The notes beneath the pieces are model-generated. The model searched no databases. It was not told the origin of the DNA and saw only the letters and a list, made by a program, of their open reading frames with translations. DNA of 58,717 bases, from assembly GCA_005791875.1 (NCBI GenBank), contig SXTU01000205.1, forward strand, positions 1-58,717, in the 5' to 3' direction. Below, one piece after another: positions 3,708 to 29,911 of this stretch (positions are counted from its first letter, which is position 1; each line of letters opens with the position of its first letter). Made by a program: the position numbers and the translations under genes. This DNA is from Verrucomicrobiales bacterium. Lineage in GTDB: Bacteria; Verrucomicrobiota; Verrucomicrobiia; Limisphaerales; SXTU01.

Positions 3708-6128
3708 ATGTATCCCTCAGTCTCGACGCTGCTGGCCGCACTAACGCTGTTTGGATGCAAGCTGGTCGCCGCCGAACCACCCGCCGGCCCGCTCCACGCG
3801 TGGTATCACGACGCCAGTCTGAAGACCGACGGCCCGAACGTCTCCGCGTGGGAAAACGCCGCCCCCAACGGCGCGGCGCAAAACCTCACGCGCGTCGTGG
3901 GCCGGCCGCAAGTCGTCCGCGTCAGCACGCCCACGGGACCGCGCGCCGTCGTGCGCCTCAACGGCACGTCCGCCCTCTGGCAGGCCGTGACCTCGTGGGG
4001 CACGCTCGCGGGTGAGCGCACGGTTGTCGCCTTCGCGCGCGTGGCGGCGACGAATCAAGGCGTCCTCTTCGACGGCAGCACGCGCATCGGCAGCACGCCG
4101 GTGAAGTGGACCGGCAAGGCTTGGCAATCCGCCGCGAAGACCTCCGCGCCCACCGACGGCAGCGGTTGGCAGACGCACCCCTTCGTCTTCGGCACGAATG
4201 GCAATCCGCTCGGCGGCTTCATCCTCGGCGCAAACGTCGCGACGCAAGAAGGCTTGGCCTGCGATGTCGCCGAGGTGCTCGTCTATCCGCGCGCGCTCGG
4301 CGAAGCAGACTTGAAGTCCGCGACCACTTACCTCGCCGCGACATGGGGCACCCCCACCGACCTCCCCGCCGCGCAGCAGCCGCAGCCCCTGCAACTCCCG
4401 AGCGACCCGCGCGTCTTCCGCACCACACTCCGCAAGGCCGGCGACGACGGCGTCCACACCTACCGCATCCCCGGCCTTGCCACCACGCCGAAGGGCACGC
4501 TCATCGCGGTCTTCGACCTCCGCCACAAGCACGGCGGCGACCTCCCGGCGGACATTGACGTCGGCGCGATGCGCTCGACCGACGACGGCGCGACGTGGAG
4601 CCCCGTCCGCCGTATCCTCGATTACGACGCCACCGTCCCCGGCTCGCAGGGTAACGGCGTGGGCGACCCCGCCATCCTCGTGGACCGCAACGGCACCATC
4701 TTCGTCGCCGCGCTGTGGTCCAAAGGCCCGCGCGCCTGGAACGGCTCCGGCCCCGGCCTGACGCCTGACGAGACCGGTCAGTTCGTGCTCACGAAAAGCA
4801 CCGACGACGGTCTCACGTGGTCGCCGCCCATCAACATCACTGCGCAGGTGAAAGACCCCGCGTGGCGACTCTGCTTCAACGGCCCCGGCAACGGTATCCA
4901 ACTCCGCGACAGCACGCTCGTTTTCCCCGCGCAGTTCAAGGGCGCGGACAAGGTGCCGCACTCGTGCTTCATCGCCAGCCGCGACGGTGGCGCAAGTTGG
5001 AAGATTTCCCCCGCCGCCATTCCCGGCACGCCACCCACGAGCGAGAGCACCATCACCGAACTCGCCGATGGTGCGCTGCTGCTCACGATGCGCAACGAGT
5101 CGCGCGCCGGCGTCCGCGCGTGGGCGCGCTGGGATTGGCAAGGCGACGTGCTGCAAGGCAAGTGGTCCGCCCCGTGGCACACCGTCCCCGACCCGACCTG
5201 CATGGCCAGCGTCATCCGCCACCCGCACGGCGAACTGATTTACTCCAGCCCCAACAGCGCCTCGCGCCGCGTCGCGCTCACCATCCGCAGCAGCACCGAC
5301 GCCGGGAAAACCTGGAGCGCCGGCCGCCTGCTCGACCCCGCTGGCGCGATGTATTCCTGCCTCACCGTGTTACGAGACGGCCGCCTCGGCGTGCTCTACG
5401 AGAGCGGCACGGAGGCGGGTCTGGTCTTCGCGCGCTTCCCGCTCGAGTGGGTGCAGGAAGGCGCGAGCGTGCCCACCATGCCCGAGGCGCGCACCGAGAC
5501 GACCGGCAAGTGGGCCTGGTGGCCCGCGCGCCACGCCGCGAAAGTCGCCGAGACCAAGGCCGGCGGCGCGGAAATCATCTTCCTCGGCGACAGCATCACG
5601 CAGGGTTGGGAAACCGCCGGCAAGGCCGCGTGGGAAAAACACTTCGCCCCGCGCAAAGCCGCGAACTACGGCTTCGGCGGCGACTCCACGCAACACGTCC
5701 TCTGGCGCGTGCGCAATGGCGAGTTCGACGGTGCGTCGCCCAAAGCCATCGTCCTGCTCATTGGCACGAACAACGCGCGCCACGGCGACTTCACCCCTGA
5801 GCAAATCGCCGCCGGCATCCGCGCTCTCCTCGACGCACTCGCCGAGAAAACCCCGCGCGCAAAAATCCTTCTCCTCGGCATCCTGCCGCGCGGCCCCGAC
5901 GCCGCCGACCCGTGGCGGCGCAAGTGCGAAGCCGTGAACGCATTGCTCCCCGCGCTCGTGGATGGCAAGCGCGTTCACCACCTGAATATCAACGCGAAGC
6001 TCCTGTCGCCCGACGGCGCGCTCTCCAAAGACCTCGCCCCCGACCTGCTGCACCTCAGCGCGAAAGGCTATTCCCTCCTCGCCGACGCGCTGGAGCCGAA
6101 GCTCGCGGAACTGCTCGCTGCTCAATGA
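3708..6128 (+). CDS. Three-domain exo-alpha-sialidase: LamG/ConA-like lectin domain, GH33 BNR sialidase and SGNH/GDSL esterase domain
   Basis: Lipoprotein-like signal MYPSVSTLLAALTLFGC. LamG-like VLVYPRALGEADL. Sialidase YRIP motif (YRIPGLATT). Four Asp-boxes: STDDGATWS, STDDGLTWS, SRDGGASWK, STDAGKTWS. C-terminal IIFLGDSITQGW ... GTNN ... DLLHLSAKGY matches SGNH blocks I, III and V. Confidence 0.85.
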   Translation: MYPSVSTLLAALTLFGCKLVAAEPPAGPLHAWYHDASLKTDGPNVSAWENAAPNGAAQNLTRVVGRPQVVRVSTPTGPRAVVRLNGTSALWQAVTSWGTLAGERTVVAFARVAATNQGVLFDGSTRIGSTPVKWTGKAWQSAAKTSAPTDGSGWQTHPFVFGTNGNPLGGFILGANVATQEGLACDVAEVLVYPRALGEADLKSATTYLAATWGTPTDLPAAQQPQPLQLPSDPRVFRTTLRKAGDDGVHTYRIPGLATTPKGTLIAVFDLRHKHGGDLPADIDVGAMRSTDDGATWSPVRRILDYDATVPGSQGNGVGDPAILVDRNGTIFVAALWSKGPRAWNGSGPGLTPDETGQFVLTKSTDDGLTWSPPINITAQVKDPAWRLCFNGPGNGIQLRDSTLVFPAQFKGADKVPHSCFIASRDGGASWKISPAAIPGTPPTSESTITELADGALLLTMRNESRAGVRAWARWDWQGDVLQGKWSAPWHTVPDPTCMASVIRHPHGELIYSSPNSASRRVALTIRSSTDAGKTWSAGRLLDPAGAMYSCLTVLRDGRLGVLYESGTEAGLVFARFPLEWVQEGASVPTMPEARTETTGKWAWWPARHAAKVAETKAGGAEIIFLGDSITQGWETAGKAAWEKHFAPRKAANYGFGGDSTQHVLWRVRNGEFDGASPKAIVLLIGTNNARHGDFTPEQIAAGIRALLDALAEKTPRAKILLLGILPRGPDAADPWRRKCEAVNALLPALVDGKRVHHLNINAKLLSPDGALSKDLAPDLLHLSAKGYSLLADALEPKLAELLAAQ

Positions 6129-16905: not shown

Positions 16906-17116
16906 TCTGGTCTTTCACTGCAAGCCCCGCGCGGGTTCTTGGGCGCGCGGAGCGGTTGGTGTTGGAGACCAGATGGAAGATGAAAAGCAAAAAGCCTTCA
17001 CCTCCGCAAATTGGAGAATGAAGGCATCTCAATCCCGCCGAAAGATGGTTCGGCGGGCTGGCCTCATCCTTCTCTTTGTCGGAGAAGTGGGCACGGGTGA
17101 GGGTGCCCTGACGAGC

Positions 17117-17258
17117 GCTGACAAGCCGGTATCCTGACTCCGGGCTTCAAACCTCGCTCCCGCCTTCCCGACCTTCAGTCAGTGGCATTGGGAGTCTGTA
17201 GCCCGTCACAGTGGCGCAACCGTCCCCGGTTCTCACGGGGTTCCCTGCACTTGTAAGC
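17117..17258 (-). promoter_or_regulatory. Cobalamin (B12) riboswitch aptamer
   Basis: The minus strand reads ...gcagggaaccccgtgagaaccggggacggttgcgccactgtgacggg...ccactgactgaaggtcgggaaggcggg...gagtcaggataccggcttgtcagc. This matches the conserved AGGGAA/GGTG..AA..CC core, the GCCACTG element and the B12 box (AGTCAGGATACCGGC). P1 pairs gcttacaag with cttgtcagc. GC-rich hairpins follow in the leader down to the ATG at 16905. Confidence 0.85.
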
Positions 17259-17462
17259 GATGATGGCGGAGCAACTCCGCCGTTGTTCAGAGAACCGGGT
17301 GCGGTTGTATGGGAACGCTCTGGCGCTGCCAAGGAAAAGGTTTGCGACGCGATTCTGCCTGCGGTTCGGCCGGCCTCATCCTGCTTGGGGTTCGCACCGT
17401 GGCGAATTTTAAGGGGACAACTTCCCGTTGTCGCTTGCGCTTCGCCCCGATACGTTGCGCCC

Positions 17463-18039: not shown

Positions 18040-18112
18040 CTTCCGGGACGGCTTTGACGATTTCTCTCCGTTGCAGCGCGCGGTTCGACCCGCTACTTTC
18101 CGCGCCCTGATT

Positions 18113-20695
18113 ATGGCTGTTGCCCGCGCATCTCATCGCTCGACGAATTCATCCACTTCCCTGCCCGCCATCCCGCCCGGCACCACCGTCACCACGCTCG
18201 ACAACGGCCTGACCGTCATCCTGCGTGAGGACCGCTCCGCGCCCGTCGTGTCCGCGCAGGCGTGGGCGCAGACGGGCAGCGTGCATGAGGGCCGCTGGCT
18301 CGGCGCGGGCTTGAGCCATGTGCTTGAGCACATGCTCTTCAAGGGCACGGCCACGCGTCCGCCGGGCCAAATTGACCGCGAAGTGCAGGACGTGGGCGGC
18401 TACATGAACGCCTACACAAGCTTCGACCGCACCGTGTATCACATTGATGCCCCGAACACCGGCGCGCGCGTCGCCGTGGATGTGTTGTGCGACATCATGC
18501 AGCACGCCGCGTTGCCCGACGACGAGCTGAAGAAGGAACTCGACGTCATCCGCCGCGAGATGGACATGGGCCACGACGACCCCGGTCGCCGCGCGGGCCG
18601 CCGGCTCTTCGAGACGGCTTACACGCGCAGCCCGTATCGCTTCACGGTCATCGGCTACCGCGACATCTTCGACACGTTGAAGCGCGAGGACATCGTGAGC
18701 TACTACCGCGAGCGTTACGCGCCAAACAACGTCTTCTTCCTCGTCGTGGGCGACATCGTGGCCGCCGACGTGCTCGCGCAAATCAAGACGGCCTGGGCCA
18801 AGTCCCCGTCGCGTGCGATTCCGCCGATGGTCCTGCCCGACGAACCCACGCAAGCCGCCGCACGCGAAGTCATCGAGGAAGCGCCCATCGAGTTGGGCCA
18901 CTTCCACTTCTCCTGGCACATCCCTGACCTGCGACACGCGGACATCCCCGCGCTCGACGTGCTCGCCACCCTGCTCGGCAACGGTCGCAGCTCGCGCCTC
19001 TTCCAAAACGTCCGCGAGAAAAAGGCCCTCGCTCACTCCGCCGACGCGTGGACTTACAATCCCGGCCTGCCCGGCCTCTTCGGCATGAGCGGCGTGGTGG
19101 ACGCGGACAAGTTCTCCGCCGCCAGCGCCGCGATGCTCGCCGAGGTCGAACGCATGAAGGCCAAGCCCGTGTCGAAGGCCGAGCTGTCCAAGGCCGTGAA
19201 GCAGTTCACCGCCGGCACGCTCGCCACGCGCAAGACGATGGCGGGTCAGGCGGCGGACCTCGGCGGCAACTGGCTCGCCGCGAGCGACCTGAACTTCTCG
19301 CAACGCTTCCTCGACGCCGTGCGCCGCCTCAAGCCCGCCGACCTCCAGCGCGTCGCGCGCAAGTATCTCACGCCTGAAAACCGGACGCTTTACGCGCTCT
19401 TGCCCGAGGGCACCGCGCCGAAGACGACCACGGGCATCGAGGTCAGCAGCCGCAGCGACATCGCGAAGTTCGAGCTGCCCAGCGGCCTGCGCCTGCTGGT
19501 GAAGGAAGACCATCGCCTGCCGTTCGCGTATTTTCGCGCCGGCCTGCGCGGCGGCGTGCTGGCCGAGACGGCGGCGAACTGCGGCGCGAGTTCCATGCTC
19601 GCGCGGCTGATGATGAAGGGCACCCAGACCCGCACCGCCGAGCAGCTCGCGACGGAGATCGAGAGCGTCGGTGGCAGCCTCGACACCTACAGCGGCAACA
19701 ACTCGCTGGGCGTCACCGCTGACCTGCTGCGCGAGGACTTTGCCCTCGGTCTCGAACTCACGGCTGATGTGTTGCTTCACCCGTCCTTCCCGAAAGCCGA
19801 GCTGGAGCGCGAGCGCGAGATTCAGCTCGGCAACCTCCGCCACCAGCGCGACGAACTGCTCTCCTGTTGCTTCAAGCTCATGAAGCGCACCCTCTTCGGC
19901 GACGCTGGCTACGGCCTCGATTCCCTCGGCACCGAAGCGACGGTGAAGGCGATGCAAGTCCCCGCCCTCGCTGCGTTGCACCAACAGCTCGTCACGCCCG
20001 ACAACTGCGTTCTTGCCATCTACGGTGCGGTGGAGACGAAGACGGTGGAGGCGGCGGTGAAGAAGGCGTTCGCACGCTGGAAGGCGTCTGGCGCACCGAC
20101 CGTCAACTCCAATCTCCAAACTCCAAACTCCAAACTTGGGGCCCGTCGCGCCAGCGACACGCGCGACAAGAAGCAAGCCGTCCTCGCCATCGGCTTCCCC
20201 GGCACAACGATGCACCACGACGACCACTACGCGTTGGACCTCATCCAAGAGGCGTGCAGCGACATGGGATCGCGGCTCTTCACGCGCATCCGCGAGAAGC
20301 TCGGCTTGGCCTACTACGTCGGTGCGCAGCACCTCGCCGGCTTGGTGCCTGGCTACTTTGCGTTCTACTGCGGCACCTCACCGGAGAAGGCCGTGCTGGT
20401 GGAGAAGGAGCTGTTGGCCGAAGCCGAGTTGCTCCGCACGGACGGCTTGACCGAGGAAGAGCTGAAGCGGGCGAAGGCTAAAATCATCGGCCAGAAGAAA
20501 ATCTCCCGCCAAGACCTCGGCGGCCAAGCGATGCTCCACGCGCTCGACGAACTCTACGGACTCGGCTACGCGCACCACATTGCAGACGATGCGCATTACG
20601 AAGCCGTGACTCTCGCCGAAGTGCGCGCTGTCGCCGCGCGCTATTTCCTCCCCAAAGCCAGCGCCGTCGCCGTCATCAGCGGGCCGTTGGCGTAG
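18113..20695 (+). CDS. Fused two-unit M16 (pitrilysin/insulinase) family zinc peptidase
   Basis: HVLEHMLFKGT is the inverted zincin HxxEH motif. The second half is an M16 inactive-type repeat (GVTADLLRED..., AYYVGAQH). TAG stop at 20693-20695. Confidence 0.85.
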   Translation: MAVARASHRSTNSSTSLPAIPPGTTVTTLDNGLTVILREDRSAPVVSAQAWAQTGSVHEGRWLGAGLSHVLEHMLFKGTATRPPGQIDREVQDVGGYMNAYTSFDRTVYHIDAPNTGARVAVDVLCDIMQHAALPDDELKKELDVIRREMDMGHDDPGRRAGRRLFETAYTRSPYRFTVIGYRDIFDTLKREDIVSYYRERYAPNNVFFLVVGDIVAADVLAQIKTAWAKSPSRAIPPMVLPDEPTQAAAREVIEEAPIELGHFHFSWHIPDLRHADIPALDVLATLLGNGRSSRLFQNVREKKALAHSADAWTYNPGLPGLFGMSGVVDADKFSAASAAMLAEVERMKAKPVSKAELSKAVKQFTAGTLATRKTMAGQAADLGGNWLAASDLNFSQRFLDAVRRLKPADLQRVARKYLTPENRTLYALLPEGTAPKTTTGIEVSSRSDIAKFELPSGLRLLVKEDHRLPFAYFRAGLRGGVLAETAANCGASSMLARLMMKGTQTRTAEQLATEIESVGGSLDTYSGNNSLGVTADLLREDFALGLELTADVLLHPSFPKAELEREREIQLGNLRHQRDELLSCCFKLMKRTLFGDAGYGLDSLGTEATVKAMQVPALAALHQQLVTPDNCVLAIYGAVETKTVEAAVKKAFARWKASGAPTVNSNLQTPNSKLGARRASDTRDKKQAVLAIGFPGTTMHHDDHYALDLIQEACSDMGSRLFTRIREKLGLAYYVGAQHLAGLVPGYFAFYCGTSPEKAVLVEKELLAEAELLRTDGLTEEELKRAKAKIIGQKKISRQDLGGQAMLHALDELYGLGYAHHIADDAHYEAVTLAEVRAVAARYFLPKASAVAVISGPLA
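20107..20134. repeat. 4x heptanucleotide tandem repeat (CTCCAAT, then CTCCAAA x3) inside the M16 peptidase ORF
   Basis: ctccaat ctccaaa ctccaaa ctccaaa encodes NSNLQTPNSKL, in a linker-like position of the second M16 unit. Confidence 0.85.
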
Positions 20696-24478: not shown

Positions 24479-25441
24479 TCACTCCTTCACCGCCACGACG
24501 AATTGGTTCGAGGTCGCCAGGCCCAGCTTGAGGCAGAGCGTGTCCAGCACGGTGAAACCGCCGCTGAACGCGATGTTCTTCAGGCTGATGTGCCGCCACG
24601 GCCAGCCACCTTCCTCGACGCAATCGAGGCCGAACTTCACGCGCAGGCTGATGATCCAGAAGCCGATGGACGGCAGATAGCCGCGGTCAATGACCTTGAA
24701 GCCCGCTTCCTGCACGAGCTTCGTCAGCGACGCCTGGTTGAACAGGTGGAAGTGGCGCGGCGTGTGGAAGCCGGCCCAATAGGAGTTGTGGAACAGGTCG
24801 AAGTCGAGGCCGCCGACGTTGGGCGTGTCGATGACGAGGAGCGCGCCGGGCTTCAACTTCGGGCGCAGGTTCAAGAGCGCCTGACGCGGGTCGCGCAAGT
24901 GCTCAATGAGCTGGCGCATGAAGGCGAGGTCGTAGCCGTTGTCCGGCAAGCCGGCCACGTCGGCCTCGATGTTGCCCTCGCGGCACTCGACGTTCAGCTC
25001 CTTCGCCAAGGCGCGCGCGCGGTCGCTGAAGAGCAGGTCAAAGGCGGTGGCTTGCGCGCCGCAGTCGGCGTAGGCGTCGCGGTAGGCGGCGATTCGCTTC
25101 ACGTCGCCGCAGCCGATGTCAATGAGGCTGGCGAAGCGCCGCTCGCCCCAGCGCGCGCGGAAGTCGCGGGCGTCCTTGCCCATCTTCCAGCGGATGAGCT
25201 TGCTCTCGTGGAAGAGCGGGGAGTTGGGGTTGACCGTGTAGTAAGTCGACGGGTAGAGCGCGGCGACCTCCTCGGGCGCGGGCAGCGGGTTGAGATAGAC
25301 ATGCCCGCACTTCCAGCAGCGCACGATGTCAAACTCGCCGGGGCGGGCGTGGTATTCCCGGTCGTCGGTGCGGGAGACGAGCGTCCAGCCGCGTTCGCCG
25401 CAGAGGAGACAATGGCCGTCGGTGCCGGTGGTGGAAGGCAT
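24479..25441 (-). CDS. Class I SAM-dependent methyltransferase with an N-terminal zinc ribbon
   Basis: CLLCGERGW...CWKCGHVYLNP is a Cys4 ribbon. LIDIGCGDV is SAM motif I. VIDTPN is also present. Confidence 0.75.
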   Translation of the reverse strand: MPSTTGTDGHCLLCGERGWTLVSRTDDREYHARPGEFDIVRCWKCGHVYLNPLPAPEEVAALYPSTYYTVNPNSPLFHESKLIRWKMGKDARDFRARWGERRFASLIDIGCGDVKRIAAYRDAYADCGAQATAFDLLFSDRARALAKELNVECREGNIEADVAGLPDNGYDLAFMRQLIEHLRDPRQALLNLRPKLKPGALLVIDTPNVGGLDFDLFHNSYWAGFHTPRHFHLFNQASLTKLVQEAGFKVIDRGYLPSIGFWIISLRVKFGLDCVEEGGWPWRHISLKNIAFSGGFTVLDTLCLKLGLATSNQFVVAVKE

Positions 25442-25453
25442 GGCGGGGGAAAC

Positions 25454-25487
25454 GTCCAACATTCAACGCTCAACTTTCAACTTCCAA
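25454..25487. repeat. Five degenerate heptamers (CNNNCAA) adjoining the methyltransferase start
   Basis: cgtccaa cattcaa cgctcaa ctttcaa cttccaa. Confidence 0.6.
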
Positions 25488-25540: not shown

Positions 25541-25740
25541 CCAACAACAGTAGCCGTGGGTGAAGCGAGCCAAGGCGAGCGAAACCCACGGTAGGAGAGC
25601 GAAAGGCTAACCACCGCGTAGCGGTGGAACAATTCACCGCTCGTCGTCTGTCCTACCGCTACGCGGTAGCCATCCTTGTTCTCGCGAACCGTGGGTTTCG
25701 TTCGCAGGGCGAACTTCACCCACGGCTACTGTTGTTCTGG
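25541..25740. repeat. Nested roughly 200-bp palindrome (MITE-like element or structured RNA) in an intergenic region
   Basis: The outer arms are aacaacagtagccgtgggtgaag...gaaacccacggt (25541-25592) and its reverse complement (25688-25740). Each arm contains its own hairpin (ccgtgggt/acccacgg). The spacer holds two further hairpins, ccaccgcGTAgcggtgg and ctaccgcTACgcggtag. Confidence 0.8.
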
Positions 25741-25789
25741 CCCCGCTGGGGCCAGTGGCGAGGGAGAACGGCTGGAATGTTACAGGACG

Positions 25790-26060
25790 CGCCGGAAAAT
25801 TCTCCGCCACCGCCCGCACGTCCCCGGCACCGCCGGATAATTCCCCGCCACCGTCCCACGATTCCTGACCACCACCGGAAAAATCCGGGGAACCGTCCGA
25901 AGAATCCCGGGATTCGCCGGACGAATCTCGGGAATCGCCAGACGGCGGTCGGGAACCGTGGGAAAAATCCCGGCCTCCGTCCCGCGAATCCCAAGAATCG
26001 TCTGACGAATCCCAGGAGTTTTCCGGCGAATCCCGGGATTTTCGCGAAATTCCCAGCCCT
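25790..26060. repeat. Array of about ten degenerate ~20-bp repeats built around the palindrome GAATCCCGGGATTC (iteron/operator-like)
   Basis: Copies include gaatcccgggattcgccggac, gaatctcgggaatcgccagac, gaatcccaagaatcgtctgac, gaatcccaggagttttccggc and gaatcccgggattttcgcg, plus looser upstream copies (ggaaaaatccgggg, ggataattccccg, ggaaaattctccg). All three forward frames give repetitive pseudo-peptides. Confidence 0.75.
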
Positions 26061-26226: not shown

Positions 26227-26839
26227 ATGGCCGACTTCATTCCGCCCGCCGATGACGCGAAAATCATCTGGCTCACCAACCTCCGCGACACCATTGACAC
26301 CTACTCGGCCACGCTGGGCATCACCGCTCCGCGCGTGACGCAAATCAAGGCGTGGTGCAACGACCTCATTGATGACATCAACGCCACCAATACCAGCCAA
26401 GCTGGCGTGGCTCGCCGCTGCCGCCACCAAGGCCACGCAGGAGACCGCCAGCCTGGGCGGACTGCGCGGCGAGATAAACCAGTGGAAGGCCAACCCCGCC
26501 TGCACCGACGCCATTGAGGCCGCGATGAAGATTGTGGGCAGCGGCAGCAGCTTTGACCCCAACACCTACAAGACCAAAATCAGCGCGCAGGTCGTGGGCG
26601 ACCATGTGGTGCTCAAGTTCAGCAAAGGCGAGACCGACGGCGTGAACTTCTATTGGCGCAAGAAGGGCGAGACCGTGTGGAAGTTCCTCTCCCGCGACAC
26701 CAACTCCCCCTACAACGACCACACTCCGCTGACGACTCCCGGCGTGCCCGAGGTGCGCGAATACCAAGCCTACGGCGTCCTAGACGACGCTCAAATCGGC
26801 CAGCCGAGCGACATCGTGAGCGTGACGTTTGCGGGATAA
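26227..26839 (+). pseudogene. Hypothetical protein with a C-terminal Fn3/Ig-like domain, split by a frameshift
   Basis: MADFIPPADDAKIIWLTNLRDTI...DDINATNT (frame of 26227) continues as AKLAWLAAAATKATQE...VVLKFSKGETDGVNFYWRKKGETVWKFL...EYQAYGV (frame of 26369). The switch needs one nucleotide skipped near 26390-26400. Confidence 0.5.
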
Positions 26840-26900
26840 ACCAAGAATCATTAATTTCGTCCCGATGTTCGGGGTGAAAAATAAAACAGGAGACACCACA

Positions 26901-27092
26901 ATGAAAGTCATGCAATCGCCGTTAGCACTGAGCGAAAACCCATCAACAACGGAATTCCACCTTCCAGCCTATGACTGGAACAAGCAGACACGGCACGACA
27001 TCATCGCGGCTGGGAAATATACGTGTAATTCACAGCAGACGTTTGACACTAGGGGACAACCCAAGGACTCACAGAACGACCATAATGATTGA
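26901..27092 (+). CDS. Candidate graspetide (omega-ester/omega-amide RiPP) precursor peptide
   Basis: A 63-codon ORF with GGAG 8 nt upstream of the ATG. The product is MKVMQSPLALSENPSTTEFHLPAYDWNKQTRHDIIAAGKYTCNSQQTFDTRGQPKDSQNDHND. The C-terminal third is rich in Thr/Ser, Asp and Lys. It lies directly upstream of an MvdC/MvdD-like ATP-grasp gene. Confidence 0.55.
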   Translation: MKVMQSPLALSENPSTTEFHLPAYDWNKQTRHDIIAAGKYTCNSQQTFDTRGQPKDSQNDHND

Positions 27093-27098
27093 TGACAC

Positions 27099-27129
27099 GT
27101 TGGTGCGGCGGCAGTCCCGCCGCACCAAC
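27099..27129 (+). promoter_or_regulatory. Perfect 13-bp stem / 5-nt loop hairpin between the precursor and ATP-grasp genes (possible attenuator or processing site)
   Basis: The sequence is gttggtgcggcgg cagtc ccgccgcaccaac. The GGAG ribosome-binding site of the ATP-grasp gene follows immediately. There is no U-tract. Confidence 0.6.
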
Positions 27130-27140
27130 GGAGTTTGATC

Positions 27141-28061
27141 ATGCTGCTCATTCTCACGAACAGTGTTGATGGAACTACTGATGAGATAGTTCGGCGCGTT
27201 GGGGCAAATCGGACTTTTCGTTTCAACATTGACCTGTGGAAGGATTATGAGATCCGCTTTCACACTGGCGGGTTTCGGCTAGCTGACCCGACCGGACGTG
27301 AGTGTCGGAGCGAGAAGCTTCAGGCGGCGTATGTCAGGAAGCCGACATTCGATGACCCGCTGGCAATTCCGGAAGGTGGTTGTCCCGAAGATTGGGTCCG
27401 GTCACAGATTTCCTGCGTTCTGCAAGAACTCTACAACCACTGCCGCGATGCTGGGTTAGTGCGACTGGTCGAGAAGGGGGCTCAACAAAGATTCGGGAAG
27501 TTTGGCCAAATGCGGCTCGCACAGAAGTTTTTTGAGGTTCCCCATTGGGAGTTCATTAAGACGTCAGGCCAAATCAGGTTTCCAGAGCCATGTATCACGA
27601 AGCCGTTGACGGCGGATTTTGTTGGGAACTACAAAGTTCTCTTCACACGGGCGGTTGTCCCAGATGATTTAGCCCCCACTTTTTCTTGGCTTCTCCAGCA
27701 GAAGATTGACGCCGAGGCGGATGTCACGGTTGTTTTCGTGGCAGGAAGATGTTTTGCCTTCGCCTTAGACCGAACGACGTTTGAGGGTGTGGATTGGCGG
27801 AAGCACATCAACAGGACAGAACTGAACTGGAGGCGCATCGGCCTTTCTCCCACGATGGAGGAATCCATTCGTTGCTACATGAGCGAGGCCGAGTTGCAAT
27901 TCGGAAGGTTCGATTTTCTCCGGGCCGGGGAGAAGTTCTATTTTCTGGAGGTTAATCCGAACGGTCAATGGGCGTGGCTTGACCTCGAAGGCACCGAAGG
28001 CATCTTTGACGCGGTCGTCGAGGAATTGACGAAGAACTGGAGCGAAGCCCAACTTTCATAA
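27141..28061 (+). CDS. ATP-grasp ligase of the RiPP-maturase (MvdC/MvdD, MdnB/MdnC-like) type
   Basis: The N-terminus MLLILTNSVDGTTDEIVRRVGANRTFRFNIDLW matches the maturase N-terminal domain pattern (LI.T...D.T.D.V...L......R.N.D). The C-terminus FGRFDFLRAGEKFYFLEVNPNGQWAWLD matches the ATP-grasp Mg/ATP site of this subfamily. G+C is lower than in the flanks. Confidence 0.8.
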   Translation: MLLILTNSVDGTTDEIVRRVGANRTFRFNIDLWKDYEIRFHTGGFRLADPTGRECRSEKLQAAYVRKPTFDDPLAIPEGGCPEDWVRSQISCVLQELYNHCRDAGLVRLVEKGAQQRFGKFGQMRLAQKFFEVPHWEFIKTSGQIRFPEPCITKPLTADFVGNYKVLFTRAVVPDDLAPTFSWLLQQKIDAEADVTVVFVAGRCFAFALDRTTFEGVDWRKHINRTELNWRRIGLSPTMEESIRCYMSEAELQFGRFDFLRAGEKFYFLEVNPNGQWAWLDLEGTEGIFDAVVEELTKNWSEAQLS

Positions 28062-28088
28062 CACCTAGCTCGATTCATAGCGAGCAGG

Positions 28089-28242
28089 CCACCTTCACCG
28101 CCGGATGCGCCACCTTCGGCTCCGCGTTAATCATTTCCCAGAGCACAGCGAGATAGCTGCGGCGGATGGGTTGGAGGTAGCCGGGTTCGTTCTCCTGCAG
28201 AACTCGCGAGAGCTTGCGGAGTTTGTAGAAGGGCACGCCGAA
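28089..28242 (-). pseudogene. Orphan duplicate of the last ~50 codons of the fatty-acid desaturase gene
   Basis: This 154-bp stretch is about 90% identical by eye to 28785-28937. On the minus strand it would encode ...FGVPFYKLRKLSRVLQENEPGYLQPIRRSYLAVLWEMINAEPKVAH, compared with the intact gene's ...FGVPFYNLRKLSRVLQENEPGYLQPIRRSYLAVLWEMINAEPKVAH. Confidence 0.8.
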
Positions 28243-28314: not shown

Positions 28315-28527
28315 ATGCAAGCACTCCAGTTTCAGGTGGAGCAGGACGGGGACTGGTTCGTGGCCACCTGCCACGACCCGGAGATGGCCACGCAGGCCGA
28401 GTCGCTCGACGCCCTGCCCGCGATGGTGCGTGACTTGGTGCGCTGCCGCTTCGAGGAGGGCGCACCGCAATTGCGCTGGCCCATCCGGATGCACTTCGCG
28501 GAAGACCCTGTGCTGGCTGCGGCATGA
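28315..28527 (+). CDS. hicB: HicB-family antitoxin (short UPF0150/DUF1902-like form)
   Basis: The 70-aa product starts MQALQFQVEQDGDWFVATCHDPEMATQAESLDAL, typical of the HicB N-terminal fold. Its stop overlaps the hicA ATG (ATGA). Confidence 0.75.
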   Translation: MQALQFQVEQDGDWFVATCHDPEMATQAESLDALPAMVRDLVRCRFEEGAPQLRWPIRMHFAEDPVLAAA

Positions 28528-28739
28528 AGCTGCCGCGTGACCTCTCCGGCGATGAAGTTTGCCGAGCATTGAAACGGCTCGGCTTTGTGTTTCAGCGGCA
28601 GACGGGTTCCCACTGTCACTACGCGAAGGGCGGGCTGCATCCCTGCGTGCCGATGCACCGGGAGATTCGCCCCAAGACGCTGCAGTCCATCCTCAAGCAG
28701 GCGGACATCACGTTGGAGGAGCTGTTGGAAAACCTTTGA
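28524..28739 (+). CDS. hicA: HicA-family mRNA interferase toxin
   Basis: GDEVCRALKRLGFVFQRQTGSHCHY...VPMHREIRPKTLQSILKQA matches the HicA/YcfA signature (GF...R..GSH...P.H..l..gTl..Il.q). Confidence 0.85.
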   Translation: MKLPRDLSGDEVCRALKRLGFVFQRQTGSHCHYAKGGLHPCVPMHREIRPKTLQSILKQADITLEELLENL

Positions 28740-28778: not shown

Positions 28779-29741
28779 TCACGCCGCCTTCACCGCCCCA
28801 TGCGCCACCTTCGGCTCTGCGTTAATCATTTCCCACAGCACTGCGAGGTAGCTGCGGCGGATGGGTTGGAGGTAGCCGGGTTCGTTCTCTTGCAGAACCC
28901 GCGAGAGCTTGCGCAGGTTGTAGAAGGGCACGCCGAACTGCGTGTGGTGCGCGAGGTGGGTGTCGAAGCCGAAGGGCGCGATGAGGTAGGCCTCCAGAAA
29001 GGTCGCCTCGATGTCCACGGTGGCCTGCTCCAAGTCGTCGAGCGGCGCCGGATCGGTCGTGTGCAGAAACCAGTAGCCGTGCTCGACGAAGATGCGGACC
29101 TCGTCGAGGAGTTGCGCGACGAGCACGAGCGGCGCGAGCCAGTGCGTGAAGTAGGCCCACCAAGTGAGTTGCGTGGCGAACAGCGCGAAGAGCGCCGCCT
29201 GCCCGACGAGGATGAGCGCGAGCTGCAACCAGTCGCGTTCGGTCTCGATGGTCTTGCTGCCGAACTGCGCGCGGGTGGTGAACTTGCGGACAAGCTTGCG
29301 GAAGAGCGAGACGACCACGCCGGTGAGCAGCGCCCACGCCCGCGGCAGGCCGGGTTTCACGCGCAGCGGCGGGCTGTAGAGCGGGGCGTCCACGTCCTCG
29401 CCAATCTTCTGCGGCGACTTGTGGTGCTGGAGGTGGGACTTCCGGTAGAGGAGGAAGTTCATGCCCAGCAAGCCGCTGAGGCCCTTGCCCATCGCCTCGT
29501 TCAAGGCCACGGGGAAAAAGAGGTTCTTGTGCGTCGCCTCGTGGATGGCCATGACGAGGCGATACTGCATGAAGCCGATGACAACGAAGGCCGCAGTCCA
29601 CACCGGCCACAGTGGCCAGAGCTTCATCGCCACCAGCGCAAGCGCGAGAATGCCGACGGTGGAGCCGACGTGGAGTGCGACGGGAAGATTGCGCTTGTCC
29701 TCGCGCAAGGCCTGAACTTTCTGAAGCGTATCTTTCGTCAT
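28779..29741 (-). CDS. Membrane fatty-acid desaturase
   Basis: Three histidine boxes are present: HEATH, HLQHH and HLAHH. There are several TM helices. The start is taken at MTKDTLQK. Confidence 0.85.
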   Translation of the reverse strand: MTKDTLQKVQALREDKRNLPVALHVGSTVGILALALVAMKLWPLWPVWTAAFVVIGFMQYRLVMAIHEATHKNLFFPVALNEAMGKGLSGLLGMNFLLYRKSHLQHHKSPQKIGEDVDAPLYSPPLRVKPGLPRAWALLTGVVVSLFRKLVRKFTTRAQFGSKTIETERDWLQLALILVGQAALFALFATQLTWWAYFTHWLAPLVLVAQLLDEVRIFVEHGYWFLHTTDPAPLDDLEQATVDIEATFLEAYLIAPFGFDTHLAHHTQFGVPFYNLRKLSRVLQENEPGYLQPIRRSYLAVLWEMINAEPKVAHGAVKAA

Positions 29742-29911
29742 GCGAGCATCTGAAGCCGCAGCCGAAACATACGAATCAGCCCCGGGTTGGCGAGGCTTTT
29801 GTTGGCGGAGGGGGGGGCGCGGATTGGCTCCCGCGCGGGGTCGCACGGGCTGTAGCGGCGGGTCTATGACCGCCGGTTCGGCGCTCGCAGAGCGCCGCGA
29901 CAGGGCACGGC

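Follow-up and report, generated by a model that had tools for sequence, protein, structure and literature searches.

The contig SXTU01000205.1 of a Verrucomicrobiales bacterium (NCBI GenBank assembly GCA_005791875.1), analysed here over its positions 1 to 58,717 and called the window below, carries a gene for a 63-residue peptide followed directly by a gene for an ATP-grasp enzyme. Our results indicate that this pair is very probably a functional and self-contained cassette for the biosynthesis of a graspetide, that is, an omega-ester peptide. The case for this reading is made by the family of the enzyme, the synteny of precursor and ligase genes, purifying selection, the conservation of specific residues and the recurrence of a hairpin between the two genes. 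An earlier note, made from the DNA alone, had described the 63-codon open reading frame with its GGAG site, the Thr/Ser/Asp-rich C-terminal third of the peptide, the hairpin and the ATP-grasp gene, and all of these are present in the window (Table 1).

The ligase, its precursor and the hairpin between them

The only NCBIfam models matched by the enzyme are models of ATP-grasp ribosomal peptide maturases. The best of them, TIGR04187 (SAV_5884/TgmB), aligns over its full length with residues 2-296 (E = 8e-30; 104 bits for a curated cut-off of 350), followed by the equivalogs MvdC and MvdD (TIGR04185 or TIGR04184; E = 6e-20 with 71.7 bits, cut-off 425, and E = 3e-14 with 53 bits, cut-off 475, respectively) and grasp-with-spasm (E = 3e-11; 43.2 bits, cut-off 230). 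When the single sequence was searched against the PDB, AMdnB, MdnB, MdnC, 9bou and CdnC were significant and the remainder had E values above 0.3. A profile built from 17 sequences of the family matched AMdnB, MdnB, CdnC, MdnC and PruB only, over the full length and with E values from 4e-30 to 4e-16; nothing beyond these five graspetide ligases was found at E ≤ 0.01, RimK, GshB and PsnB being absent. The AlphaFold2 model of the ligase, computed with 73 homologues, has a mean predicted local distance difference test (pLDDT) score of 94.9 and a predicted template modelling (pTM) score of 0.90. The top 32 Foldseek matches of this model in the PDB are graspetide ligases (MdnC bound to MdnA, AMdnB, PruB, CdnC, MdnB and PsnB), with E values from 7e-19 to 3e-11 and TM-scores of 0.67-0.78. 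RimK comes in at rank 33 (E = 1.6e-10, TM-score of about 0.63), and LysX/ArgX and synapsin likewise rank after the graspetide ligases. The view of the earlier note that the protein resembles microviridin-type maturases rather than RimK or GshB is thus borne out by the NCBIfam, PDB profile and Foldseek searches. In the profile comparison that it had proposed, of maturase against RimK and GshB models, only maturase models matched, all below their cut-offs.

The residues K154, D258, E270 and N272 and the NPNGQWAW block are invariant in the 73 homologues; according to the general pattern of ATP-grasp enzymes, they would provide the ATP-binding lysine and the Mg2+ ligands. Homologues also begin with MLLILTNS, which supports the ATG at 27141 as the start codon over the TTG at 27135. 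Relative to the nearest relative of the locus (L083, on an unrelated contig from an ENA metagenome), the ratio of nonsynonymous to synonymous substitution rates (dN/dS) of the ligase is 0.16. Judged from sequence and structural model, the enzyme is a graspetide-type ligase that has the expected catalytic residues intact and stands outside every curated subfamily.

The precursor gene encodes MKVMQSPLALSENPSTTEFHLPAYDWNKQTRHDIIAAGKYTCNSQQTFDTRGQPKDSQNDHND. Its start at 26901 is supported by the fact that the in-frame ATG at 26865 falls out of frame in L083. Besides the peptide of the window itself, a search of 5.8 billion proteins returned 14 homologous peptides with lengths of 62-90 residues (65-87% identity, E values from 5e-30 to 3e-19). 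Given these homologues and a dN/dS below 1 against L083 (0.40, with every replacement at a non-conserved position), the reading frame is not a chance occurrence. In the alignment of close homologues, the invariant residues include P7, L21-P22-x-Y24-D25-W26-x-K28-Q29-T30-R31-H32 and G38 in the first part of the peptide and S44, Q46, T47, G52, P54, D56, D60 and D63 in the core, while T41, F48 and D49 are conserved in at least 90% of the sequences. Two leader residues (Y24 and Q29) and three core residues (T47, G52 and D56) are retained in the alignment across phyla.

Two conserved elements are present in the leader. The first, SPxxL near the N-terminus, contains the invariant P7 and L10 (conserved in at least 90% of the sequences), and it fits the generic graspetide leader signature P-h-h-x-h (PMC8939145). 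The second is LPAYDWNKQTRH, in which Y24 and Q29 are the residues invariant even across phyla. Both elements may take part in binding the ligase, by analogy with the leaders of microviridins and plesiocin. As the earlier note had remarked, the leader is unlike that of microviridins, the PFFARFL motif being absent. The A-G38 pair, restricted to the clade of the window, might serve as a cleavage site of the double-glycine-like kind; the two genes have no linked C39 peptidase and no linked transporter containing a peptidase.

The C-terminal 23 residues, TCNSQQTFDTRGQPKDSQNDHND, contain five Thr/Ser residues (T41, S44, T47, T50 and S57), four Asp residues (D49, D56, D60 and D63) and one Lys (K55). 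The earlier note had counted five donors, four acceptors and one Lys, and this count holds. A lactam is unlikely because neither K55 nor K39 is conserved.

The hairpin that separates the two genes is perfectly paired and has the same sequence in L083. Folding of positions 27085-27150 gave a minimum free energy of -35.6 kcal/mol (z = -5.9), and none of 200 shuffled sequences was as stable. The ligase start codon lies 11 nucleotides 3' of the stem, which may occlude the adjacent ribosome-binding site. Most loci of the family, in all precursor subtypes, have a strongly structured intergenic region (z ≤ -3), with stems of unrelated sequence at the same position just 3' of the precursor stop codon. 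An attempt to derive a consensus structure across loci failed, as the stems are not homologous in sequence and each locus folds individually. The stems of L001 and L054 are followed by T-tracts, as in intrinsic terminators, and L002 and L003 have a spacer of only 12 nucleotides without a hairpin. The hairpin is probably a partial terminator or a stabiliser of the mRNA 3' end, and it would in this way set the ratio of precursor to enzyme.

Table 1. Positions of the graspetide pair and associated features in the window
Feature	Position	Strand	Details
Block shared with L083	~26170..~28045	+	~90-95% nucleotide identity
Upstream gene, function unassigned	26227..26839	+	219 aa in L083 (4039-4698); in the window, a 1-nt insertion near 26395 splits it
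Ribosome-binding site of the precursor gene (GGAG)	26889..26892	+	8 nt 5' of the ATG; read from the sequence; kept in L083
Precursor peptide gene	26901..27092	+	63 aa; ATG 26901, TGA 27090-27092
Leader elements	26916..26996	+	element 1, S6-P7-x-x-L10; element 2, L21-P22-A23-Y24-D25-W26-N27-K28-Q29-T30-R31-H32; from alignments
Predicted core, T41-D63	27021..27089	+	donors T41, S44, T47; turn G52-x-P54; acceptors D56, D60, D63; (near-)invariant columns
Intergenic hairpin	27099..27129	+	perfect, GC-rich, 13 bp with a 5-nt loop; 27099-27111 pairs with 27117-27129; between precursor and ligase genes
Ribosome-binding site of the ligase gene (GGAG)	27130..27133	+	abuts the 3' arm of the hairpin; read from the sequence
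ATP-grasp graspetide synthetase gene	27141..28061	+	306 aa; profile, fold and PDB sequence matches

Family, precursor subtypes and predicted crosslinks

A word-indexed search returned 204 homologues of the ligase, and an exhaustive profile search found 260 representatives of clusters at 50% identity at E ≤ 1e-30, the superfamily comprising 5,613 at 1e-10. All named members of the family are annotated as "hypothetical protein", except for one fragment that bears a RimK-type label. Eighty genome loci were fetched, of which 78 include upstream DNA; partner genes were counted over 81 loci. The fetched loci are mostly found in metagenome-assembled genomes (MAGs) that bear the labels Verrucomicrobia/Verrucomicrobiota, Kiritimatiellae, Akkermansia and Lentisphaerae, with scattered members in Acidobacteriota, Bacteroidota, Nitrospiraceae, Proteobacteria, a cyanobacterium, Terrabacter and Thermodesulfobium. 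Of the 78 loci that include DNA upstream of the ligase gene, 77 have a short Thr/Ser-rich reading frame with a tail rich in Asp immediately upstream of it and on the same strand, which is the outcome of a check that the earlier note had suggested; two of these 77 precursors are disrupted, and L035 is the single locus without one.

The precursors fall into four subtypes. Subtype A (17 loci) comprises the window type and its multi-phylum relatives, with the leader PxDLAxxP...YDxxxQxR and the core TxNxTQT(F/Y)xxxGxPxDxDxD. Subtype B (three loci) is Thermodesulfobium-like, with ...SSTMFDGESKSTEADS, and has an ABC transporter downstream. Subtype C (32 loci) belongs to rumen Kiritimatiellia (MTPNDIATDISGL...NFTYTFERMDDANTWD), and subtype D (19 loci) to Akkermansia/Luteolibacter (YDWQTQ...GTxSYVGxxLTIDDWNSD). 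Partner genes encode ABC transporters in 32 loci (mostly upstream), Ser/Thr-kinase-like proteins in 38 (mostly downstream) and sigma factors of the extracytoplasmic function (ECF) type in 17. Among the loci inspected these partners occur mainly in the rumen type-C subfamily, and all three are absent from the clade of the window. The ABC transporters adjacent to the pair in sister subfamilies suggest that the product is exported.

Two side observations concern other members of the family. Precursors of the Kiritimatiellia/rumen subfamily have about 40-46 residues and begin with MTPNDIAT...; the graspetide pair and its partner genes there form a larger conserved cluster than that of the window (L010, L013-L016, L018, L021-L022, L026, L028-L034 and other rumen and gut loci). 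A few loci are decaying: in L080 (6001-6872) the ligase is shortened to 149 residues and the precursor is frameshifted, and in L024 (~3820-3960) a stop codon interrupts the precursor before its ...RLDDSHTWD tail.

The comparison of subtype A precursors offers a prediction for the rings. In the multi-phylum type, T41, T45 and T47 are the donors, D56, D58 and D60 the acceptors, and there is no D63. The clade of the window has Q, L, I or V at position 45, never a Ser or Thr, and Q, K, T or R at position 58, never an acidic residue, while its S44 and D63 do not vary; compared with the multi-phylum type, it has lost T45 and D58 and gained S44 and D63. Since T45 and D58 disappeared together, they may be partners in the broad type A. 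For the window peptide we infer three omega-ester crosslinks, T47-D56, S44-D60 and T41-D63. The sums of the positions (103, 104 and 104, respectively) fit pairs facing each other across the strands of a hairpin with its turn at G52-x-P54.

The pathway would then begin with translation of the 63-residue precursor, whose leader (approximately residues 1-38, with SPxxL and LPAYDWNKQTRH) would dock on the ATP-grasp ligase. With ATP, the ligase would phosphorylate side-chain carboxylates of Asp residues in the C-terminal core, and Thr/Ser hydroxyls would attack the acyl phosphates to form side-chain macrolactones; catalysis on this particular peptide is a prediction. The predicted product has three nested esters across a beta-hairpin turning at G52-x-P54 and a mass loss of 54 Da. 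The intergenic hairpin would end or stabilise most transcripts after the precursor gene, yielding more peptide mRNA than ligase mRNA. Removal of the leader and export would rely on unlinked functions, or the leader might be retained. Graspetides are compact, protease-resistant and multiply cyclised peptides, and the characterised members are potent protease inhibitors. By analogy with them, the product of the window would most plausibly be a protease inhibitor as well.

Genomic surroundings and mobility

An origin of the window in a genome of the Planctomycetes-Verrucomicrobia-Chlamydiae (PVC) type, as had been supposed in the earlier note, is supported: it carries a PSCyt1/PSCyt2/PSD1 gene and a DUF1501 gene, and the closest loci in other genomes are in MAGs labelled Verrucomicrobia, Verrucomicrobiales and Chthoniobacteraceae. 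The homology with L083 is limited to one block, the flanks being non-homologous on both sides. The GC content of the peptide-ligase pair is 50-55%, as against 62-70% in the surrounding genome, and the neighbouring genes are not conserved among the closest loci (L001, L002, L003, L039, L083 and L086-L089). Taken together, the non-conserved neighbours, the limited homology with L083 and the low GC content show that the two-gene module is the conserved unit, and the module behaves as a horizontally moving insert.

The inserted block also contains the gene of unassigned function upstream of the precursor, which has no Pfam match. A homologue with 25% identity lies upstream of the pair in L087 (3562-4266), and truncated remnants are found in L039, L086, L088 and L089. 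This gene was considered as a core component of the system and rejected, being absent from the other ~75 loci and frameshifted in the window. A gene for an S-adenosylmethionine (SAM) methyltransferase (24479-25462, reverse strand) was likewise considered as a graspimiditide-like tailoring enzyme and rejected: the protein belongs to Methyltransf_23 and is not a PIMT, and the gene lies on the opposite strand, beyond the limits of the L083 block, and lacks conservation. The stretch 25790-26040, located between this gene and the left end of the inserted block, is non-genic or of low complexity and holds a degenerate tandem array of about 12 copies of a 21-nucleotide unit, the units containing the palindromic GAATCCCGGGAT; several long imperfect inverted repeats are found at 25575-26040.

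Toxin-antitoxin genes are often found around the graspetide pair, with HicAB in the window and PIN-domain genes in L086-L089. Directly downstream of the pair in the window there are two overlapping genes (28315-28527 and 28524-28739), one for a HicA toxin (Pfam HicA_toxin, 5.6e-17) and the other a small reading frame upstream of it; the small frame looks HicB-like by eye and has no Pfam match. These two genes are bracketed by a direct repeat of 158 nucleotides with 92% identity (28085-28242 and 28780-28937), the left copy being a duplicated 3'-end fragment of a fatty-acid desaturase gene (28779-29846, reverse strand), which looks like an insertion with target duplication. In L046 and L027, pairs of small reading frames and a recombinase-like frame were recognised nearby by eye.

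Further away, the window contains a cobalamin riboswitch (17107-17269, reverse strand; Rfam RF00174, 77.9 bits, E = 1.6e-17), the sole Rfam family reaching its gathering score there. About 6 kb upstream of the precursor, the region 18071-20695 (forward strand) encodes an 874-residue protein with two M16 (insulinase-type) peptidase modules. This protein is probably unrelated to leader removal: its gene does not form part of the inserted block and shows no conservation together with the pair.

Relation to known graspetides, alternative explanations and significance

The microviridin ligases MdnC, MdnB, AMdnB and CdnC (group 1) are the best matches of the ligase family in sequence and in fold, with full-length profile E values from 4e-30 to 3e-22 and TM-scores of 0.74-0.78, and they share with the window ligase the C-terminal motif FLE(V/I)NPxG(Q/E)W. 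Microviridin loci also resemble the window in having the precursor next to the ligase and a leader followed by a C-terminal core of Thr, Ser and Asp. However, identity between the ligases is only ~20%, and the scores of the window ligase lie below the MvdC/MvdD equivalog cut-offs. Unlike microviridin loci, the window has neither the PFFARFL leader nor the TxKYPSDx(D/E)(D/E) core, no GNAT or ABC gene, one ligase instead of two, and no conserved Lys for a lactam.

Another branch of likeness leads to the actinobacterial two-gene loci of TgmA/TgmB (the SAV_5884 family, TIGR04187/TIGR04186) and PruB (PDB 9bou). TIGR04187 is the best NCBIfam model of the ligase, and among annotated genes on plasmids the best matches are tgmB and "MvdC/MvdD family" genes with at most 28% identity, in the order precursor then ligase; tgmB genes themselves have 25-27% identity and the same order as the window. 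PruB is a top fold match. The difference from TgmA/TgmB lies in a ligase score of 104 bits for a cut-off of 350 and in the phyla, leader and core motifs; against the NCBIfam models, including TIGR04186, the precursor gave no match at E ≤ 1.

The group 6 or thuringinin branch (cluster 13 of Makarova et al., 2022; core GTETFTKTTNEPTDSDND) has a superficially similar layout. Its leader has an aromatic residue and then Q or N (EYSKKQN), to be compared with AYDWNKQ in the window, and the core of the window resembles it in the form TxTF...PxDxDND. An hhalign comparison of the window precursors with cluster 13 aligned them from the leader Tyr through the core, at a probability of only 37% (P = 3.6e-4). 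Group 6 precursors have two or three repeated cores (TxTxT...ExxDxD) whereas that of the window has a single core with a spacing off by one residue, and the clade of the window has DSQNDxND where group 6 has DxDxD. The ligase, for its part, resembles the microviridin and TgmB types, with no PsnB match at E ≤ 0.01 in the profile search.

The pattern PxDLAxxP...YDxxxQxR...TxNxTQTFxxxGxPxDxD occurs in none of the 174 consensuses that Makarova et al. (2022) give for precursor clusters, and searches of the accessible text and supplements of that work for the precursor motif and for the taxa gave no match. Neither did the precursor match the available representatives of groups 25, 27-30 and 32-41 (Carter et al., 2026), a comparison that leaves groups 7-24, 26, 31 and 42-43 outside. 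A literature search for graspetides in PVC taxa found nothing relevant; the graspetides of a PNAS 2024 study are unrelated (groups 1 and 2, Rheinheimera). At the level of sequence, the locus has every feature by which a graspetide locus is recognised. It is a real and probably undescribed group or variant within a known class of RiPPs (peptides made by the ribosome and modified after translation), as judged from the accessible groups and thus without groups 7-24 and 42-43. The suggestion of a possibly new graspetide class in the earlier note therefore has to be narrowed: the class is not new, since it already has 43 groups and >21,000 predicted members (PMC13097080), and what stands is a new group or variant within it.

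Several observations weigh against a functional graspetide cassette, or against details of it. All four NCBIfam scores of the ligase are far under the curated cut-offs, and a Pfam scan of ligase and precursor gave no match at E ≤ 1, a result that is uninformative for the ligase because NCBIfam and the PDB are decisive. Genes for a GNAT, an ABC exporter or a peptidase are absent from ~3 kb around the pair, in line with what had been noticed before; neither a protease nor an exporter is linked to it. The 61-nucleotide region upstream of the precursor yielded no sigma-70-like promoter. The window hairpin lacks a U-tract (UUU only) and is hence not a canonical intrinsic terminator. Finally, the co-variation of donors and acceptors amounts to one transition at the level of a clade, a single evolutionary event and not repeated covariation.

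Other explanations differ in their likelihood. That the enzyme is a ligase of primary metabolism or protein tailing (of the RimK, GshB or LysX type) next to an unrelated or spurious reading frame is highly improbable in our view. ATP-grasp enzymes do share one fold, RimK, LysX/ArgX and synapsin are present in the Foldseek list at ~1e-10, and automatic rimK or RimK-type labels have been given to one distant plasmid homologue and to one fragmentary member; but the ligase has no Pfam match to RimK or glutathione synthase, both PDB profile and top structural matches consist of graspetide ligases, and the small upstream frame is conserved in sequence and position in nearly all loci. We also consider it improbable, though less so, that the pair is the decaying remnant of a horizontally acquired cassette that makes no product in this genome. 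The low-GC insert, the frameshift in the co-transferred upstream gene, the adjoining HicAB genes with their 158-nucleotide duplication, the visible degradation of some family loci (L080, L024) and the want of a promoter-like site directly upstream of the precursor would all suit such a history. Against it, neither reading frame is broken, the hairpin and the two ribosome-binding sites are likewise intact, the expected ligands of ATP and Mg2+ are kept, and the ligase has been under purifying selection since its divergence from L083.

A more serious contender, to which we give a substantial chance although short of an even one, accepts the peptide as the true substrate and changes the chemistry: fewer rings than a triple lactone, a ring involving D49, a lactam at K39 or K55, or an interlocked, cage-like topology in place of the nested hairpin. 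D49 is nearly invariant in the clade of the window, T50 and S57 offer extra hydroxyls, and graspetide ligases are known to tolerate varied patterns of donors and acceptors (PMC8939145; PMC13097080). On the other hand, K55, K39, T50 and S57 are not conserved, whereas the donors and the C-terminal acceptors that do not vary within the clade number exactly three each, with a spacing that fits cross-strand pairing.

A bolder conclusion can also be drawn, which we put forward tentatively and would not yet rely on. The window would belong to an uncatalogued group that has its centre in the PVC superphylum (gut and rumen Akkermansia, Kiritimatiellia) and comprises ~260 clusters at 50% identity. Precursors of this group, each with a single core, would form a Gly-x-Pro beta-hairpin held by three omega-esters, and in the clade of the window the rewired register (T45-D58 lost, S44 and D63 gained) would create a ring topology present in no characterised graspetide, from a minimal cassette of one enzyme and one peptide. 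With the class, its chemistry and its many groups already known, the gain would be incremental. Such a small cassette with a new core motif should nonetheless be easily expressed, and it would provide a new ring scaffold and a new leader/ligase pair for cyclising peptides with enzymes. Verrucomicrobiota, Kiritimatiellia and Akkermansia-related MAGs of lake, soil, rumen and gut origin widely carry the family without annotation, and assigning it a function would be relevant to interactions mediated by peptides in these communities.

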